Positions 1 to 29,431 of a stretch of DNA of 32,000 nucleotides are shown here, one piece after another. The notes under the pieces were generated by a model, which saw only the letters and a program-made list of their open reading frames with translations, was not told the DNA's origin and did not search any database. Numbering within the stretch: the first letter of the stretch is position 1; every line of letters begins with the position of its first letter. The translations under genes and the position numbers were made by a program. Origin of the DNA: Chlamydiota bacterium (GTDB lineage Bacteria > Auribacterota > JACPWU01); contig JACPWU010000028.1 in assembly GCA_016196885.1 (NCBI GenBank), positions 1 through 32,000 of the forward strand, read 5' to 3'.

Positions 1-2789
1 TAAAACCAGGGCATGAGGCCGAGGGGATTAGACCCCGTTTGGGCTTGCGTAATTCCATTGATTTCTCCAGGGGCTTGTTTTAACATTTGAATGAGGGCAC
101 GAGACAACTGAATGAACTGACTCAAAGACTCGCGTAAAGAAGTACTCGGTGGAGCGCTGGTGAACATCGCTGTACTGCTGCTTACGGCGGGGGCGATCAG
201 CGATGCGTTTATGGCATTTAAGCTCTGGACCAAGGTAGCAGTGCTATCATTGGGAGCTGTGGTGCTTGTAGGGGGGGTGTTCGTATATCCCAACAAAGAT
301 TCACACAAGGAGGAAAGGTAAAATGGTAATTCTTGTTGGTTTGGCAATTTTTGCAGTGGTGATGGCCATTCTTGTGAATGTTGATGACTATCGGAAGGCC
401 CACCACCCCCACCATCGTTAGGAAGGGCACGCAATACTGCTTGCAAAGATTCAGCATTTTGCTGTGCGGCTTTTAAAAGTCCTGTAAGATCTTCTTGTTC
501 CCCTTCTATCCCCATTCTCTGAAAAAGTAAATTTCGAGCCTCTAGATCTGGAACCAATTGATGAAGGGCGGCTACGGCCAAGGCACGTGTGGCCGGAGTC
601 TCACTTGTTAAATTTCCTCGAAGACCCTCGAGTAATTGTTGACTTTCTTCATCCAACTGAAGTCCTTCAAGATTTTCTTGAATAAGTTGAGCAAAGGGTC
701 CGGCTTTTTCAGCCCATTGAACGAGTATTTGATTAACGGCAAAGGCAGCTGTTGTATTTCCTTCTTTATTCTTCTGGCTTACCTCAATCAAAGCTTTAAA
801 GACTTGAATAAATTCTGTGAGTCGAGCTTGTAAATGTTCCGGCGTAAGTTGTGCTTCTAAAGAAAGGGTTGGATCACCTAAGGCGTCTCCTGGTTCTTCT
901 CCGTCTCCTTTTAAAACACTGGAGAATTCTTTCATTTTTCTAAAATAAATATCGCGGTCTTCAATTTTTGAGGTGTGAGGGGCAATCACCCAATAACCGA
1001 TATTCGCAGCCTTCAGTTTTTCTTTGATGCCCTCTGTGTGAAAACCTCCCACAACCAATGCGACAGATTTGAGATTTTTATCCCGAATTATTTTTTGAAT
1101 TTTTTCTTGGAAAATCTCGTCGCGTTCTAAAACTCCCTTGTAGAATTTTTCTGCTGCACCAAAAACCTCAGAGAGATCGGGGGTTTCAAATGAGAGATTG
1201 TTTTGTTGAGTTAGTTTTTTGAGATGATGAATAAAATTATCAACAAATTGATTTTCTTGTATGTCTTTCCTCCCCCTTGCTTTTTTAAGGGGGAATGAGG
1301 GGGTTACTTGTTCTTCTCTCATAACTCCCCTAACCCCTCTTACCTTAAGATGGGAATAAAAGACCTTTCCAATATCTTCTCTCGTCCCTTCCATCGATAT
1401 AACTCGATTCAAAACAGCGTAACTCTTCTCAATTTTAAGCAATTTCTTGATTTCTTCTTCGTTTTCTTTTCCACTGTACGCTGTACGCTCCACGCTATCC
1501 GCTAGCTTTTGAATTTCTCCCTCCAACTTTTCCCAGGAAAGATTCTTCATCAACTCCATTTCTTCAAAGAGCAATTCTAAATTTTTATAGTGCCGTACAT
1601 CGTCTTGATTTTCCCTCCCCTTAAAATAAGGGGAGCCGGAGGGGTTATCGTTCTCTTTCATAACTCCCCCTTCCCCTAACTCCCCAAACCTCTTTAAGGA
1701 AGTAACTCCCCAGGCCCCTCTTACCTTAAGAGGGGGTATTGATAAAAGAGGGGGTATTATCTTAAGAGGGGAGAGCTTCTCTTCAGTTACTAATTTTAAA
1801 TACTGTTTTAAAAATAAATAATGCTCAACCTCGCTTCTCTTTCCCAACCGATATTCCAAAACCTCTCTCAAAAGTTTTTGTGCCTCTTCTTTGACAAGAG
1901 ATTTTTCTAAGACCTCTAAATAGACAAGATACTCTCCTTCAACAGCTGAAAGATCTATCTTTTCTTCAAGATCTTTAAGCTCGAGGTATCTGGTGATCTG
2001 AGGATAGCTTTGTTTTCCAATTTTGATTTCTGATTTGTCATTTTGATTTTTGATATTTGATATTTGATTTAAATACTCCCCCATCTTGATGTTGTGACTT
2101 TCATACTTTTCCTTAAATTCCATCAACTCACGAAGCTCTGAAGGGTAAATTCTTTCTCTGAGCTGATGAATCACTTCCTCCATTTTTATCCATTCAGACT
2201 CTTCGGATTCTTTGATTTCCAAAAGTTCGCCCATGCTTTTGACATTTTCAACATAGGGTTTAATTTCCTCGACTCCGATCCCCTCCACTTTTTGAGGACC
2301 TTCTTCTATCAAGAAGGCCTCCACGCCATTGATGTCATGATTCTCTAGAAATTTAAGGCTCGCCGCCTTTAAAACTTCTTTATCCGGAAAGCCCCAGAAA
2401 AATTGCATGTCCATAGGCCCACTGGCCGCTTCAGCTAAAACATGAAGTTTCTCGCCTTTTGCTTCTTGGCCCTTCATTAAATATTGAAGAATTTTCTGAA
2501 TGTTTTTTTGAGCCTCTGAATGACAATGAATATCCTCTATTACATATAGGAGGGGTTGCCCCTGAATTTCATTTTTTTCGATCACTTCCCCAATATCATG
2601 CGGGATTTCCACGCGATCCAAAGATTCTTGAAAGGGCTCTGTTCTGAGGGGCCACTCAGCCGATTCTGTCCTTACTCCTACAGCTGGAATGAGTTTTGCC
2701 TCTTGAGCCAAAGCTTCTCGAGGCGTCAGGTCATAAACCAGAAAAGTCAGAATCAAGAAACTACTCATGAGTTTTCGAAGAAGATTCAT
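1..2789 (-). CDS. Large secreted protein, 3' end cut by the window edge (about 929 codons seen). Possibly a TraB/GumN/ChaN/Tiki-like fold carrying a very large insert.
   Basis: Not in the supplied ORF track because it has no in-window stop. Hand translation of the minus strand from ATG (2789..2787) gives MNLLRKLMSSFLILTFLVYDLTPREALAQE..., which looks like a signal peptide. The frame stays open to position 1; I checked the frame triplet by triplet over 1-60 and 1201-1800. The N-terminal motif LYVIEDIHCHSEAQ and, about 500 aa later, ERDEIFQEKI...VALVVGGFHTEGI recall the GxxH / ERD / GxxH pattern of the TraB-GumN-Tiki superfamily (from memory, not searched). The C-terminal part is S/T/P/Q-rich with a GGGGG run. 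Confidence 0.7.
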   Translation of the reverse strand, partial: MNLLRKLMSSFLILTFLVYDLTPREALAQEAKLIPAVGVRTESAEWPLRTEPFQESLDRVEIPHDIGEVIEKNEIQGQPLLYVIEDIHCHSEAQKNIQKILQYLMKGQEAKGEKLHVLAEAASGPMDMQFFWGFPDKEVLKAASLKFLENHDINGVEAFLIEEGPQKVEGIGVEEIKPYVENVKSMGELLEIKESEESEWIKMEEVIHQLRERIYPSELRELMEFKEKYESHNIKMGEYLNQISNIKNQNDKSEIKIGKQSYPQITRYLELKDLEEKIDLSAVEGEYLVYLEVLEKSLVKEEAQKLLREVLEYRLGKRSEVEHYLFLKQYLKLVTEEKLSPLKIIPPLLSIPPLKVRGAWGVTSLKRFGELGEGGVMKENDNPSGSPYFKGRENQDDVRHYKNLELLFEEMELMKNLSWEKLEGEIQKLADSVERTAYSGKENEEEIKKLLKIEKSYAVLNRVISMEGTREDIGKVFYSHLKVRGVRGVMREEQVTPSFPLKKARGRKDIQENQFVDNFIHHLKKLTQQNNLSFETPDLSEVFGAAEKFYKGVLERDEIFQEKIQKIIRDKNLKSVALVVGGFHTEGIKEKLKAANIGYWVIAPHTSKIEDRDIYFRKMKEFSSVLKGDGEEPGDALGDPTLSLEAQLTPEHLQARLTEFIQVFKALIEVSQKNKEGNTTAAFAVNQILVQWAEKAGPFAQLIQENLEGLQLDEESQQLLEGLRGNLTSETPATRALAVAALHQLVPDLEARNLLFQRMGIEGEQEDLTGLLKAAQQNAESLQAVLRALPNDGGGGGPSDSHQHSQEWPSPLQKLPNQQELPFYLSSLCESLLGYTNTPPTSTTAPNDSTATLVQSLNAINASLIAPAVSSSTAMFTSAPPSTSLRESLSQFIQLSRALIQMLKQAPGEINGITQAQTGSNPLGLMPWF
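1269..1354. repeat. Palindromic G-run/C-run element, copy 1 (three hairpin modules), in frame inside the 1..2789 ORF
   Basis: Module a: TCCCCCTT (1271-1278) pairs with AAGGGGGA (1287-1294). Module b: GGGGGTTA (1299-1306) pairs with TAACTCCCC (1322-1330) with one bulge. Module c: CCCCTCTTA (1334-1342) pairs with TAAGATGGG (1346-1354), 8 of 9. Minus-strand translation is ...HLKVRGVRGVMREEQVTPSFPLKKARGRKD... with no stop. Confidence 0.75.
1615..1775. repeat. Palindromic G-run/C-run element, copy 2 (same modules, expanded), in frame inside the 1..2789 ORF
   Basis: Module a: CTCCCCTTA (1615-1623) pairs with TAAGGGGAG (1627-1635). Module b: GGGGTTAT pairs with ATAACTCCCC (about 1641-1670). Module c: CCCCTCTTA (1715-1723) pairs perfectly with TAAGAGGGG (1727-1735). 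Two further AAGAGGGG(GTATT) direct copies extend to 1775. Translation is ...PLKIIPPLLSIPPLKVRGAWGVTSLKRFGELGEGGVMKENDNPSGSPYFKGREN... with no stop. Module order and reading phase match copy 1. Confidence 0.75.
2021..2070. repeat. Heptad-word tract (TTTTGAT family) translated in frame within the 1..2789 ORF
   Basis: The sequence is ttttgat ttctgat ttgtcat tttgattt ttgata tttgata tttgatt. On the minus strand it encodes NQISNIKNQNDKSEIKI. Confidence 0.7.
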
Positions 2790-2941
2790 ATTTTATATTT
2801 TCATAACTCTCTTGATACAAAATAGATATGACAATTTTATAAATTCAAGAACACACCCGCGGATTCATAGGGTTAGGACACTTGAAGAGAAGAGAAAGTA
2901 AAGTTGGGGTGCACTTTTCTTCTTTTTAATGAAACAGCAAA

Positions 2942-2975
2942 AATAATAGACAAAACTATTATTTTTTCATACTAT
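2942..2975 (+). promoter_or_regulatory. Putative sigma70-type promoter with overlapping inverted repeat (candidate operator) for the RHH-PIN operon
   Basis: -35 TAGACA (2947-2952), 17-nt spacer, -10 TACTAT (2970-2975). The inverted repeat AATAATAG (2942-2949) / CTATTATT (2956-2963) overlaps the -35. Further CTATT words lie downstream. Confidence 0.45.
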
Positions 2976-2996
2976 TCCTATTGGAATCTAATAGTT

Positions 2997-29035: not shown

Positions 29036-29334
29036 TCCCTCTTTCCTATTATCTCATTTTGAGCGGCATTCTTTTTTCCATCGGCGTCCTGGGCATCTTA
29101 ATCCGTCGTAATGCCATCATGATCCTTCTGTCTCTTGAAATTATGCTCAATGCCGTCAATTTATCCTTTGTTTCTTTCTCCCGATTTTCTGGCAATTTAG
29201 AGGGACAAATCTTTGTTTTCTTTATTATGACCATTGCAGCGGCTGAAGTCGCCGTGGGATTGGCCATTTTAATCTCTATTTTTAGAAACAAAAAATCGGT
29301 AGACACCGATTACATGAAATCATTGAGATGGTAG
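29032..29334 (+). CDS. nuoK: NADH-quinone oxidoreductase subunit K
   Basis: [44 protein letters not shown]...[14 protein letters not shown] is the classic NuoK/ND4L sequence. ATG 29032 overlaps the nuoJ stop as ATGA; the track start at 29026 is a TTG. Confidence 0.93.
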   Translation: [100 protein letters not shown]

Positions 29335-29353
29335 GAAGGCAGAAGTCAAAAAA

Positions 29354-29431
29354 CAGAATTCAGGAGTCAGAATCCAAAATTCAGAATAAATAATGAACCT
29401 TATTATTCTGAATTCTGGATTCTGAATTCTG
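29354..29431. repeat. Heptad-word hairpin (CAGAATT words) in the nuoK|nuoL junction
   Basis: Left arm: cagaatt caggagt cagaatc caaaatt cagaata. Right arm: tattctg aattctg gattctg aattctg. The right arm is the complement of four of the five left heptads. Pairing continues through AATAA...TTATT to a 6-nt loop. Confidence 0.85.

Follow-up and report, generated by a model that had tools for sequence, protein, structure and literature searches.

Tandem arrays of heptanucleotides have been known from cyanobacteria for decades, and we know of no function for the class. Heptanucleotide repeats are the most abundant class of long simple sequence repeats in most prokaryotic genomes, and replication slippage has been proposed for them, according to those parts of Mrazek et al. 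(2007) that later papers summarise (PMC4679880, PMC4692102). In several filamentous cyanobacteria a 7-bp STRR hairpin lies between hupS and hupL, which has been suggested to act on transcript stability or on translational coupling (PMC2670836), and each Xanthomonas genome carries 70-75 inverted pairs of GGGAATC arrays, most of them transcribed (Rehm et al. 2015; PMC4692102).

The 32,000-nt stretch of DNA analysed here (the window) comes from the metagenome-assembled genome (MAG) of an uncultured, non-cyanobacterial bacterium; the MAG is labelled 'Chlamydiae bacterium', and its next-nearest PstC homologs are from Omnitrophica MAGs. Its hairpins lie between cistrons, as does the hupS–hupL hairpin, and consist of inverted heptad arrays like those of Xanthomonas. 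An earlier reading made from the sequence only had considered them not assignable to a described family, a view contradicted by the hupS–hupL STRR hairpins, the Xanthomonas pairs and the heptanucleotide LSSR class. What is new here is the non-cyanobacterial lineage, the high density and the comparative evidence from relatives. We see about an even chance that the elements are heptanucleotide LSSR/STRR arrays, many of them in inverted pairs, which are retained where a site tolerates them and, between cistrons, become part of the transcript as stem-loops.

Period-7 tracts in the window

A lag scan of the window (21-nt scanning window, at least 17 matches, periods 2 to 21) identified nine tracts of period 7, the sole enriched tandem period; all other periods gave zero or one tract each, save two tracts at the multiple 14. 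TRF placed period-7 arrays at or adjoining most of the coordinates proposed by the sequence-only reading; the loci at 11988, 19074 and 23480 were missed by TRF, and inspection of the printed sequence by eye shows their heptads. At least eight unrelated words occur within the 32 kb. Background DNA totalling 1.3 Mb likewise has more tracts at period 7 (43) than at any other period (7-32), and AGTCGTG is no commoner than shuffled control words in viral contigs. Heptad words are arbitrary, and arrays of arbitrary words are found in many unrelated genomes.

Metagenome bins can mis-assemble repeats, but the probability that the tracts are assembly artefacts or chance low-complexity sequence is practically negligible. 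Not one period-7 tract was reached in 50 dinucleotide-type shuffles of the window. Both pstB hairpins are unchanged in an independent Logan assembly (100% identity over 2098 nt), and the relatives that share the architecture were obtained by four independent projects (NCBI, ENA and two Logan runs).

Hairpins at junctions and arrays inside genes

The combination of heptad construction and hairpin form proposed earlier was recovered at seven loci by inverted-repeat search and RNA folding (Table 1). The arms are runs of 3-5 heptads, 18-36 nt long and 75-94% complementary, and folding energies range from -21 to -48 kcal/mol (z-scores from -3.6 to -9.0). Earlier counts of the imperfect pairing agree with ours, including 20 of 24 at 15524. 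The A/T-rich loops (13-82 nt) are unusually large for functional RNA hairpins.

Table 1. Heptad hairpins and arrays in the window, with inverted repeats (I), TRF arrays and folding energies (kcal/mol)
Positions	Strand	Type	Heptad words	Location	Repeat evidence	Energy	z
2021..2070	-	single-arm array	TTTTGAT on + strand, sense ATCAAAA	inside long ORF (start 2789, off the window's left end)	TRF, 7.3 copies, 79% matches		
4569..4635	+	hairpin	CGTACTT/CGTGCAG/CGAACAT.. vs ..CGAAGTA/CGACGCA	between ABC ATPase stop (4563) and ABC-2 permease (likely start 4681)	I12	-32.1	-4.3
6341..6367	-	array	TTTTGAT x3.3	C-terminal tail of double UvrA ORF, directly upstream of next gene's ribosome-binding site	TRF, 100% matches		
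8896..9001	-	composite array	GGTGAGG x3.9, then TGAGTTT/TTTCGAT/TTTTGAT units	in-frame linker joining two UvrA halves	TRF		
11076..11105	-	heptad tract	CTTCCAA type	inside UvrA half 1	strict period-7 scan		
11988..12018	+	single-arm array	AAATTCGAAATCCGAAGCATGAAATTCGAAA	spans hydrolase start codon (12006), between divergent genes			
15524..15597	-	hairpin	AGTCGTG / CACGACT family	pstB (copy 2)–phoU	I9	-38.8	-7.6
16364..16446	-	hairpin	AGTCGTG / CACGACT family	between tandem pstB genes	I2, 32-nt arms, 84% complementary	-48.0	-9.0
18100..18173	-	hairpin	GTTCTTA/GTTTTAA/GTTTTTG vs ..CAAAACT/AAGAAC	pstC–pstA	I13, 94% complementary	-21.1	-3.6
19074..19210	-	long hairpin	TTCGAAA/TCCGAAG/CACGAAT family	pstS–pstC	I3 and I7	-46.5	-6.9
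22022..22121	-	hairpin	CAATGAC / GTCATTG	phoB–phoR	I16 and I22; TRF 22040-22066, 22089-22121	-38.3	-6.3
23480..23505	-	short array	CGAA family, AAGCACGAAACTAGAATTTCGAATTT	50-nt junction, membrane-protein gene–157-aa ORF			
24258..24286	-	array	14-nt unit x2.1, alternating TGAAGAG/TGTAAAG	directly upstream of membrane-protein start, divergent region	TRF, 100% matches		
29350..29436	+	hairpin	CAGAATT / ATTCTGA	nuoK–nuoL	I1, 34-nt arms, 85% complementary	-41.2	-7.5

All seven hairpins lie between co-directional genes, where they occupy 7 of the 9 junctions of at least 50 nt, and none lies in the eight divergent or convergent spacers (1969 nt in total). The proposed preference for intra-operon junctions is thus upheld for the hairpins, as are the gene identities at these junctions (Pfam and annotation of relatives; nuoJ, nuoK and nuoL by Pfam). 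It does not extend to the arrays at 2021, 6341, 8897 and 8940, which are in-frame inside ORFs, nor to those at 11988 and 24258, between divergent genes. Several words do occur, as had been noted, but not one to each locus: TTTTGAT is present at three loci, AGTCGTG at two and the CGAA type at four, and some loci duplicate a whole element.

In six of the seven hairpins the 5' arm begins 0-9 nt past a stop codon, and the stems of the three that were read closely include neither the Shine-Dalgarno sequence nor the start. The pstB–phoU junction reads, in sense order, stop, AAAC, stem-loop, AAAAAC, AGGAG and ATG, and after the nuoK–nuoL stem come GTTTTC, AAGGAG and ATG (29455). At pstS–pstC the 5' arm begins at the pstS stop codon. 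The pstC start is there inside the stem: in the ORF translation all in-frame canonical start candidates of the first 60 codons (TTG 19107, GTG 19086) fall within the 3' arm. The layout of stop, hairpin and start is also found in pst operons of Deltaproteobacteria and Bacteroidota (L079, L018 and L045).

The hairpins are not classical intrinsic terminators. It is also improbable that they are U-tract-independent or factor-dependent terminators or attenuators, which would lower transcription of the distal cistrons. PstS is usually in excess over PstCAB, which a terminator at pstS–pstC would fit; the stems are strong, and the GTTTTC after the nuoK–nuoL stem points the same way. However, the pstB–pstB and pstB–phoU stems lack a sense U-tract, as first seen at 15523 and 16364 (flanks AAAAAC and GATAAAAAAC). 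A terminator consensus scan performed at chance (23 found, 22.0 expected) and flagged none of the elements, most of which its 3-8 nt loop limit excludes. Moreover, the sites separate subunit genes of obligate complexes (pstC–pstA, pstB–pstB, nuoK–nuoL), and hairpins of the same heptad-arm architecture (-61 and -64 kcal/mol) occur inside the UvrA ORF of a related locus, L082.

Within ORFs, the array at 2021-2070 is read ..NQISNIKNQNDKSEIKIG.. and has an irregular GTCA unit in common with 8940-9001. The array-encoded UvrA tail (6341-6367) is lacking in the homologs P0122 and P0124, while P0123 has a similar tail, KNQISKIK. In protein alignments the linker insertion is confined to the window and L082 proteins. 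At the protein site of the tract at 11076-11105, which the earlier list lacked, L082 carries a heptad hairpin of the word GCTCGAG, whereas more distant homologs have no insertion. The double UvrA carries arrays in array-rich genomes only. The arrays survive only at harmless insertion sites, namely intercistronic gaps and in-frame protein linkers, loops and tails.

Elements in related genomes

In six relatives, each pst junction is either filled by a heptad hairpin of 65-128 nt or has a length of -41 to +5 nt. The tandem pstB genes overlap or are 2 nt apart in L082, L101 and L102, the ABC ATPase and ABC-2 permease genes overlap in L105 and L106, spacer-free, and pstS–pstC spans 5-80 nt in relatives. 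Across 68 other species the pstA–pstB spacer has a median of 6 nt. The junctions are therefore normally short, as had been supposed. Strict tracts number 11 in the window, 10 in L082, one in L104 and none in L105 or L106. Neighbouring junctions within one genome share a word, and words differ between genomes, sisters included; for example, the phoB–phoR junction of L082 contains arrays of GACGACA. At the place matching 24258-24286, L082 has a homologous ACTTTAC/ACTTTAA array.

Whole elements also resemble one another. Positions 15507-15600 and 16354-16449 are about 80% identical, loop included, versus 50-70% for the flanking paralogous genes; in L082, near-copies of one element lie at 17171-17269 and 19306-19400; and by eye 11988-12018 matches the reverse complement of 19180-19210 at 27 of 31 positions. 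The pstB–phoU element of the window agrees with that of L082 at 76 of 95 positions (80%), versus 245 of 657 (37%) at the saturated four-fold sites of seven flanking genes. Constraint thus acts on at least one element. Conservation of its primary sequence, including the loop, fits sequence-specific recognition or master-copy homogenisation better than a pure stem-loop role.

Such copies, together with the filled or empty state of orthologous junctions and the presence of array-rich and array-poor genomes within one clade, could indicate a non-autonomous family of small mobile elements, comparable to MITEs, REPINs or Rickettsia palindromic elements, with heptads as a family property and a transposase elsewhere that recognises hairpin DNA. 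The arrays inserted in-frame into a conserved protein are reminiscent of Rickettsia palindromic elements (PMC10969869), and the pstB–phoU conservation fits a conserved master sequence. We nevertheless regard this origin as rather unlikely. By eye, filled sites show neither target-site duplications nor conserved termini, and no transposase gene is present in the window or related loci. The number of unrelated words, their divergence between sister genomes and the occurrence of arbitrary-word arrays in so many unrelated genomes also count against it, as do the microsatellite-like inner structure and the single-arm arrays of the same words.

Possible origin and roles of the arrays

If the elements are heptanucleotide LSSR/STRR arrays, replication slippage would create them in the DNA and lengthen or shorten them 7 nt at a time. 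The inverted arms could come from inverted duplication or from template switching, and whole elements (arms and loop) may occasionally be copied to nearby sites. Arrays at operon junctions would necessarily be co-transcribed, placing a stable stem-loop between the upstream stop and the downstream ribosome-binding site. The likeliest co-opted role would be that of an intercistronic mRNA structure, which would shield the segment upstream of it, mark sites of processing or adjust translational coupling.

The stems give no sign of selection at the RNA level: on the sense strand G.U and A.C oppositions occur at 14:11, 40 of the 65 stem mismatches are transversions, none of 27 pairs among three homologous hairpins shows a compensatory double change, and folding energies show no consistent difference between the sense and antisense strands. 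In the close relatives L102 and L105 the junctions are tight; therefore, any function of the elements is dispensable.

Alternatively, the arrays may be cooperative platforms on mRNA or single-stranded DNA for a protein whose monomers each cover about 7 nt, as those of the cold-shock-domain, S1 or another OB-fold type do, with hairpins sequestering or presenting sites and so controlling downstream translation. Each heptamer is bound by one molecule of Bacillus subtilis CspB, and TAACTGA arrays lie a few nucleotides upstream of start codons (MacGregor 2015, PMC4679880). Heptamer repeats affect expression of Nostoc recF and recO (bioRxiv 10.1101/2022.06.06.494920). In the window, single-arm arrays abut starts apparently without a Shine-Dalgarno sequence (24258-24286 upstream of the membrane-protein ATG and 11988-12018 spanning the hydrolase ATG), and the conserved primary sequence at pstB–phoU, loop included, would also suit a binding site. 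However, to serve so many unrelated words in one genome the binding would have to be non-specific or of many specificities, the control scans show the words to be arbitrary, and arrays occur inside ORFs and in both orientations, all of which makes such platforms unlikely. The layout of stop, hairpin and start is also found in pst operons of Deltaproteobacteria and Bacteroidota (L079, L018 and L045).

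Heptad arrays and heptad-armed hairpins in the window

The heptad arrays and heptad-armed palindromes of the window are real, are of the STRR/LSSR kind and occur in a new lineage. A lag scan for identical bases p positions apart (21-nt windows, at least 17 matches, periods 2-21) recovered nine strict period-7 tracts covering 310 bases, against 0-1 tracts for each other period save for two tracts at the multiple 14. No period-7 tract arose in 50 dinucleotide-type shuffles of the window, which confirms for the window the periodicity noted in a sequence-only reading. The tracts are, as in LSSRs, head-to-tail 7-nt units longer than chance. 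TRF reports period-7 arrays of 2.1-11.4 copies at or beside most of the heptad loci flagged in that reading, as well as others beyond its list; three flagged loci that TRF misses, 11988, 19074 and 23480, are plain in the printed sequence. Run SRR12113416 yielded an independent Logan assembly in which 2098 nt, both pstB hairpins included, match the window exactly; at least these two tracts are therefore not assembly artefacts. Array length was identical in this one independent assembly of the same sample, the only one compared.

An inverted-repeat search of the window identified seven loci as paired heptad runs in opposite orientation (see table), with arms of 18-36 nt and a complementarity of 75-94%. 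Their predicted RNA folding energies lie between -21 and -48 kcal/mol (z-scores between -3.6 and -9.0), in keeping with the hairpin form first proposed for them. In the sense orientation the order is stop codon, 5' arm, A/T-rich loop, 3' arm and start codon, and the 5' arm begins 0-9 nt past the stop codon in six of the seven. Both pstB hairpins have an A-rich spacer 3' of the 3' arm (sense flanks AAAAAC and GATAAAAAAC), and a Shine-Dalgarno motif is visible ahead of phoU and nuoL.

Classical intrinsic terminators were rejected as an explanation. The GC-rich stem, short loop and direct U-tract of such terminators are not found together here: the loops measure 13-82 nt, no U-tract follows either pstB hairpin in the sense direction, as had already been claimed, and a consensus terminator scan of the window ran at chance level and flagged no heptad element. 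Rfam covariance models gave no match to the window at the gathering threshold, and no tRNAs or known RNA families were found in it.

RNA-level selection on the stems left no signal in folding energy, in G.U/A.C counts or in covariation. Sense and antisense folding energies show no consistent difference. The non-Watson-Crick oppositions on the sense strand of 15 hairpins comprise 14 G.U, 11 A.C and 40 transversions, with no wobble bias (G.U versus A.C, p = 0.69), and compensatory changes were seen in none of 27 pairs, from three homologous hairpins only. Thus, neither the wobble bias nor the covariation of a structured cis-regulatory RNA is present, the latter as judged from only three sequences.

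Three readings of the heptad words were also rejected. AGTCGTG is not a universally preferred word, as it occurs in 10 viral contigs compared with 17, 40 and 70 for three shuffled words, all near the ~17 estimated by chance for an assumed database size of ~75 Gb. The heptad is not a 6-nt palindrome plus one base, as for restriction or methylation: nine of 50 words fit, with 8.6 expected from letter-shuffled words. Pho boxes have an 11-bp period; the CAGTYKT units are not Pho boxes, since the arrays also occur at non-Pho genes and have period 7, not 11.

Genes, hairpins (from the inverted-repeat search) and other features of the window
Feature	Position	Strand	Detail
Long ORF, left end	1-2789	-	at least 929 aa; runs off window edge
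18-nt tandem repeat	1721-1771		in left-end ORF
In-frame heptad locus	2021-2070		in left-end ORF
RHH + PIN toxin-antitoxin pair	2997-3637		after left-end ORF; type II (Pfam)
ABC ATPase + ABC-2 permease			after first toxin-antitoxin pair
Hairpin	4569-4635
Double UvrA	6325-11904	-	1859 aa
In-frame heptad locus	6341-6367
In-frame heptad loci, two	8896-9001		flagged separately as 8897 and 8940
Perfect GGTGAGG array	8896-8922	+	3.9 copies
In-frame heptad locus	11076-11105
Hydrolase + PD-(D/E)XK nuclease			after UvrA
Spacer between the two preceding genes	12891-13603		~710 nt; genes convergent
phoU, pstB, pstB, pstA, pstC, pstS, CYTH protein, phoR, phoB			phosphate block
Hairpin	15524-15597		pstB hairpin
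Tandem pstB paralogues	15601-17193
Hairpin	16364-16446		pstB hairpin
Period-8/16 repeat	17193-17224		pstA-pstB junction, 37 nt
Hairpin	18100-18173		pstC-pstA junction
Hairpin	19074-19210		pstS-pstC junction
Array reached by annotated pstC 5' end	19074-19109
Hairpin	22022-22121
CAATGAC/GTCATTG heptads	22027-22121
Two genes without assigned identity, GcvT-like protein, methyltransferase, TPP enzyme			after phosphate block
Array differing in copy number from L082	24258-24286
Phd/YefM + PIN toxin-antitoxin pair	27491-28173		between TPP enzyme gene and nuoJ; type II (Pfam)
Hairpin	29350-29436
nuoJ, nuoK, nuoL			right end

Operon junctions in the window and its relatives

The PstC and UvrA proteins of the window are NCBI 'MAG: Chlamydiae bacterium' proteins. 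The closest other genome, GCA_016178055.1 (L082), is also a 'Chlamydiae bacterium' MAG, syntenic with the window and 83% identical in PstC. The next PstC relatives are Omnitrophica MAGs (~70%), and among the matches listed from a PstB scan of species representatives, all of them in distant phyla, the best come from many non-cyanobacterial phyla. The cyanobacterial origin expected from the likeness to STRRs is therefore rejected by the homology of the window proteins. A metagenome scan with the PD-(D/E)XK protein for closer relatives returned none above 55% identity.

Gene starts in the window were curated and all spacers tabulated. Nine of its 18 co-directional junctions are at most 16 nt or overlapping, one is 37 nt and nine are at least 50 nt. 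A heptad hairpin fills seven of these nine, a short array lies in one and the last has nothing, so that the long operon junctions of the window owe their length to hairpins. The eight divergent or convergent spacers (1969 nt in total) hold no hairpins and only two single arrays. The suspected preference for co-transcribed junctions is genuine within the window, all seven hairpins being co-directional; hairpin-capable 7-bp repeats between co-transcribed genes also characterize STRRs of the hupS-hupL type. Overall, nine of 14 catalogued loci are intergenic, and five fall within ORFs, where they occupy linkers, loops or tails. The placement of the elements points to an operon-level role, but their stems lack the hallmarks expected of an RNA helix under selection.

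The pst operons of five relatives (L082, L083 and L101-L103) and larger loci of three others (L104-L106) were compared with the window. The pst junctions of the relatives are either tight (-41 to +5 nt) or filled with a heptad hairpin of 65-128 nt. At the pstB-pstB junction, L082 has a 2-nt spacer and the genes of L101 and L102 overlap; a single hairpin fills this junction in the window (96 nt, AGTCGTG), in L083 (126 nt, GTAG/ACGA) and in L103 (96 nt, GTCACC). Words are similar at adjacent junctions within one genome and differ between genomes. The distribution of arrays in the clade is patchy, with sisters that are array-rich or array-poor: this comparison counted 11 strict period-7 tracts in the 32 kb of the window, 10 in 21 kb of L082, one in 25 kb of L104 and none in 25 kb of L105 or 16 kb of L106.

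Heptad elements are copied whole: between the two pstB hairpins of the window identity is ~80%, loop included, compared with only 50-70% between the flanking paralogous genes. Gene conversion between the pstB paralogues may have copied the hairpin, since the hairpins resemble each other more closely than the genes do; however, identity at the pstB 3' ends is not raised enough to prove a conversion tract. The heptad hairpins may be mobile elements. Each element family has two or three copies within 32 kb, at ~80% identity. Inspection by eye of filled and empty sites revealed neither shared termini nor target-site duplications, such as MITEs and REPINs have. No RAYT/IS transposase gene occurs in the window, nor in related loci totalling 100 kb.

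At least one element is under constraint. The pstB-phoU hairpin has the same length, 94 nt, in the window and L082, with 76 of 95 aligned positions identical, while four-fold degenerate sites in seven flanking orthologues are saturated (245 of 657, or 37%, identical); the element is thus conserved far beyond the neutral rate. An array upstream of a membrane-protein gene likewise keeps its word and position in L082. Copy number differs between homologous arrays (for example window 24258-24286 versus L082 3259-3306), and the words of the phoB-phoR arrays are entirely different in the two genomes.

At the pstS-pstC junction, all canonical in-frame start candidates among the first 60 codons of pstC lie inside the 3' arm of the hairpin. 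In the window and in L082 (10001-10046) alike, the 5' end of pstC as annotated extends into a heptad array, and PstC measures 306 aa as the NCBI protein and 299 aa as the called gene of L082, compared with ~290 aa in most homologues. PstC thus has either an array-encoded N-terminal extension or a mis-called start. Gene callers carry ORFs through stop-free arrays, as at the annotated pstC N-termini and the UvrA tail, and it would be wrong to take the long 'intergenic' junctions of such genomes for promoters or terminators.

Several other features differ between the window and L082. The pstA-pstB junction of the window carries a period-8/16 repeat, TTTAAACT, whose block GTTTAAAGGCT is conserved in L082; there the junction measures 97 nt and holds a longer hairpin with this block as one of its arms. 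The spacer between the hydrolase and PD-(D/E)XK genes contains only weak overlapping ORFs in the window and is 11 nt in L082. The CYTH gene lies between pstS and phoR in the window and upstream of phoB in L082. Tandem pstB paralogues occur throughout the clade (L082, L083 and L101-L105).

Arrays inside genes

Five heptad loci of the window lie in frame within ORFs. The double UvrA, two complete UvrA-like proteins in tandem in a single ORF, is widespread among many phyla at 1780-1900 aa; in an alignment with homologues, heptad-encoded insertions occur only in the window and L082 proteins, at the inter-half linker, one loop of half 1 and the C-terminal tail. Two of the L082 insertions (17171-17269 and 19306-19477) are full heptad hairpins of GCTCGAG/CCTCGAG within the ORF (-61 and -64 kcal/mol), near-identical copies 2.1 kb apart that read in frame as LEARSSKLEAEAK..FASSLQPRASS. 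The presence of full hairpins within this ORF argues against a terminator role and indicates that the elements settle wherever insertion is tolerated. In the account best supported by these data, the elements persist only in permissive sites and would be co-transcribed as intercistronic stem-loops, and the arrays would grow and be copied at the DNA level.

With its runs of four G, the GGTGAGG array is reminiscent of the GGGGAYT/GGGAATC arrays found in Nostoc and Xanthomonas, which are prone to form quadruplexes. GGTGAGG is the sole G-rich word in the window; in the mRNA the array is present as its C-rich strand. The left-end ORF, which contains a heptad array and an 18-nt tandem repeat, has no Pfam match.

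Known repeat classes and other phyla

The canonical STRR words (STRR1-3) are said to go back to Mazel et al. in 1990. The words of the window are mostly unlike them; the CAATGAC/GTCATTG heptads are a rotation or complement of TTGGTCA, which we take to be the cyanobacterial STRR2 unit. STRRs and the window elements are alike in their 7-bp tandem units, often as two inverted, hairpin-capable runs, between co-transcribed genes. STRR hosts are filamentous or heterocystous cyanobacteria, whereas the window belongs to a 'Chlamydiae bacterium' MAG with Omnitrophica-like next neighbours; unlike STRRs, its arrays occupy nearly every long operon junction and also make in-frame protein insertions. In several filamentous cyanobacteria, 7-bp STRR repeats able to form a hairpin lie between hupS and hupL; their function was stated to be unknown, and transcript stability or translational coupling was suggested (PMC2670836). 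The sequence-only reading could not assign its combination of heptads, hairpins and junctions to a described family, a view that does not stand because this hupS-hupL hairpin is such a case. New here are the occurrence outside the cyanobacteria, the density and the behaviour seen among relatives. No mention of heptamer repeats in PVC-group bacteria came up in the literature searched. STRR fingerprinting is still in use for genotyping Nostoc isolates.

According to PMC4679880 and PMC4692102, Mrazek, Guo and Shah (2007) reported that heptanucleotide repeats outnumber the other long SSRs in most prokaryotic genomes, with polymerase slippage as the proposed explanation. Each Xanthomonas genome contains 70-75 inverted pairs of GGGAATC arrays. 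Most of the arrays are transcribed, and from species to species they usually stay in place and remain either single or inverted, with variable length and sequence (Rehm et al. 2015, PMC4692102). The window arrays share the over-representation and mostly intergenic location of LSSR/GGGAATC heptamers; however, Xanthomonas uses one G-rich, quadruplex-prone word genome-wide, whereas the window has at least eight words in 32 kb, one of them G-rich, and its hairpins occur only in co-directional junctions. TAACTGA direct repeats are sporadically distributed among marine Beggiatoaceae, some Cyanobacteria and Bacteroidetes (MacGregor 2015, PMC4679880). These too are tandem heptamers, mostly intergenic near start codons with some translatable in ORFs, but they consist of a single word, nearly always direct (one inverted case) and 1 nt upstream of starts; the window has many words, mostly as inverted pairs after stop codons.

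REP/BIME, ERIC and Correia/NEMIS elements resemble the window hairpins in being palindromic, co-transcribed and placed in operon junctions; these elements and intercistronic stem-loops act on mRNA stability or RNase processing (PMC10969869, PMC4423207 and PMC10311766). They differ from the window elements in having a conserved consensus, no internal 7-nt periodicity and a mobility tied to known transposases. Rickettsia palindromic elements (RPEs) are palindromic repeats found in frame in unrelated protein genes, where they add a surface peptide (PMC10969869). They share in-frame insertion with the window arrays but form ~150-bp families with conserved peptides, whereas the coding insertions here are heptad arrays, as hairpins in L082 and single-arm in the window.

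The hairpins would most plausibly serve to stabilize or process segments of the mRNA or to couple translation, and not to terminate transcription. Alternatively, the arrays may serve as protein-binding platforms. The heptad class is old and its function unsolved: papers on heptanucleotide repeats call their function unknown and offer only the slippage idea for the 7-nt unit. The clade provides a clean comparative system, with array-rich and array-poor sisters, tight and filled junctions, one conserved element and in-frame copies in a repair protein, which makes testable whether hairpins tune operon expression, whether they are mobile and which host factor tracks with the arrays.

Period 7 is also the commonest tandem period in a background set of pst loci that covers 80 other species and 1.3 Mb (43 tracts versus 7-32 for other periods), and nine of the 43 tracts have an inverted partner. 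The stop-hairpin-start layout with heptad arms recurs in pst loci of a Deltaproteobacteria MAG (L079), a Cytophagaceae MAG (L018) and Bacteroides timonensis (L045). In L079 (4494-12960) a heptad hairpin lies at essentially every pst junction (words GCGCATA, CGTAATA and GCCAATT), and adjacent junctions have a common word, which is the window's pattern in an unrelated phylum. High-GC (57-69%) viral contigs (L107, L109, L114 and L116) contain AGTCGTG-type heptad arrays and hairpins, with the order stop, hairpin, GGAG, ATG at ~1850-1960 of L107 and 10 period-7 tracts in the 9.9 kb of L109. A far-reaching reading would make heptad-armed hairpins a cross-phylum intercistronic class, with members in the PVC-group MAG, the Deltaproteobacteria MAG, Bacteroidota and high-GC viral contigs. 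It would invoke a dedicated, word-agnostic 7-nt-step mechanism that generates or maintains them, perhaps slippage of a specific kind by a polymerase or primase, or a protein that binds nucleic acid as an oligomer and has a footprint of 7 nt. The hairpins would have been domesticated to set the stoichiometry of operon-encoded complexes, and the mechanism would also create new in-frame protein linkers. Taken as a whole, this reading is improbable.

The canonical word AACTAAG/CTTAGTT, present within the pstC-pstA hairpin of the window, also occurs in arrays of three unrelated MAGs from Planctomycetia (L014, 3794-3834), Bacteroidota (L047, 5869-5904) and Verrucomicrobiaceae (L056, 7766-7793), a recurrence that may be an effect of chance or composition.
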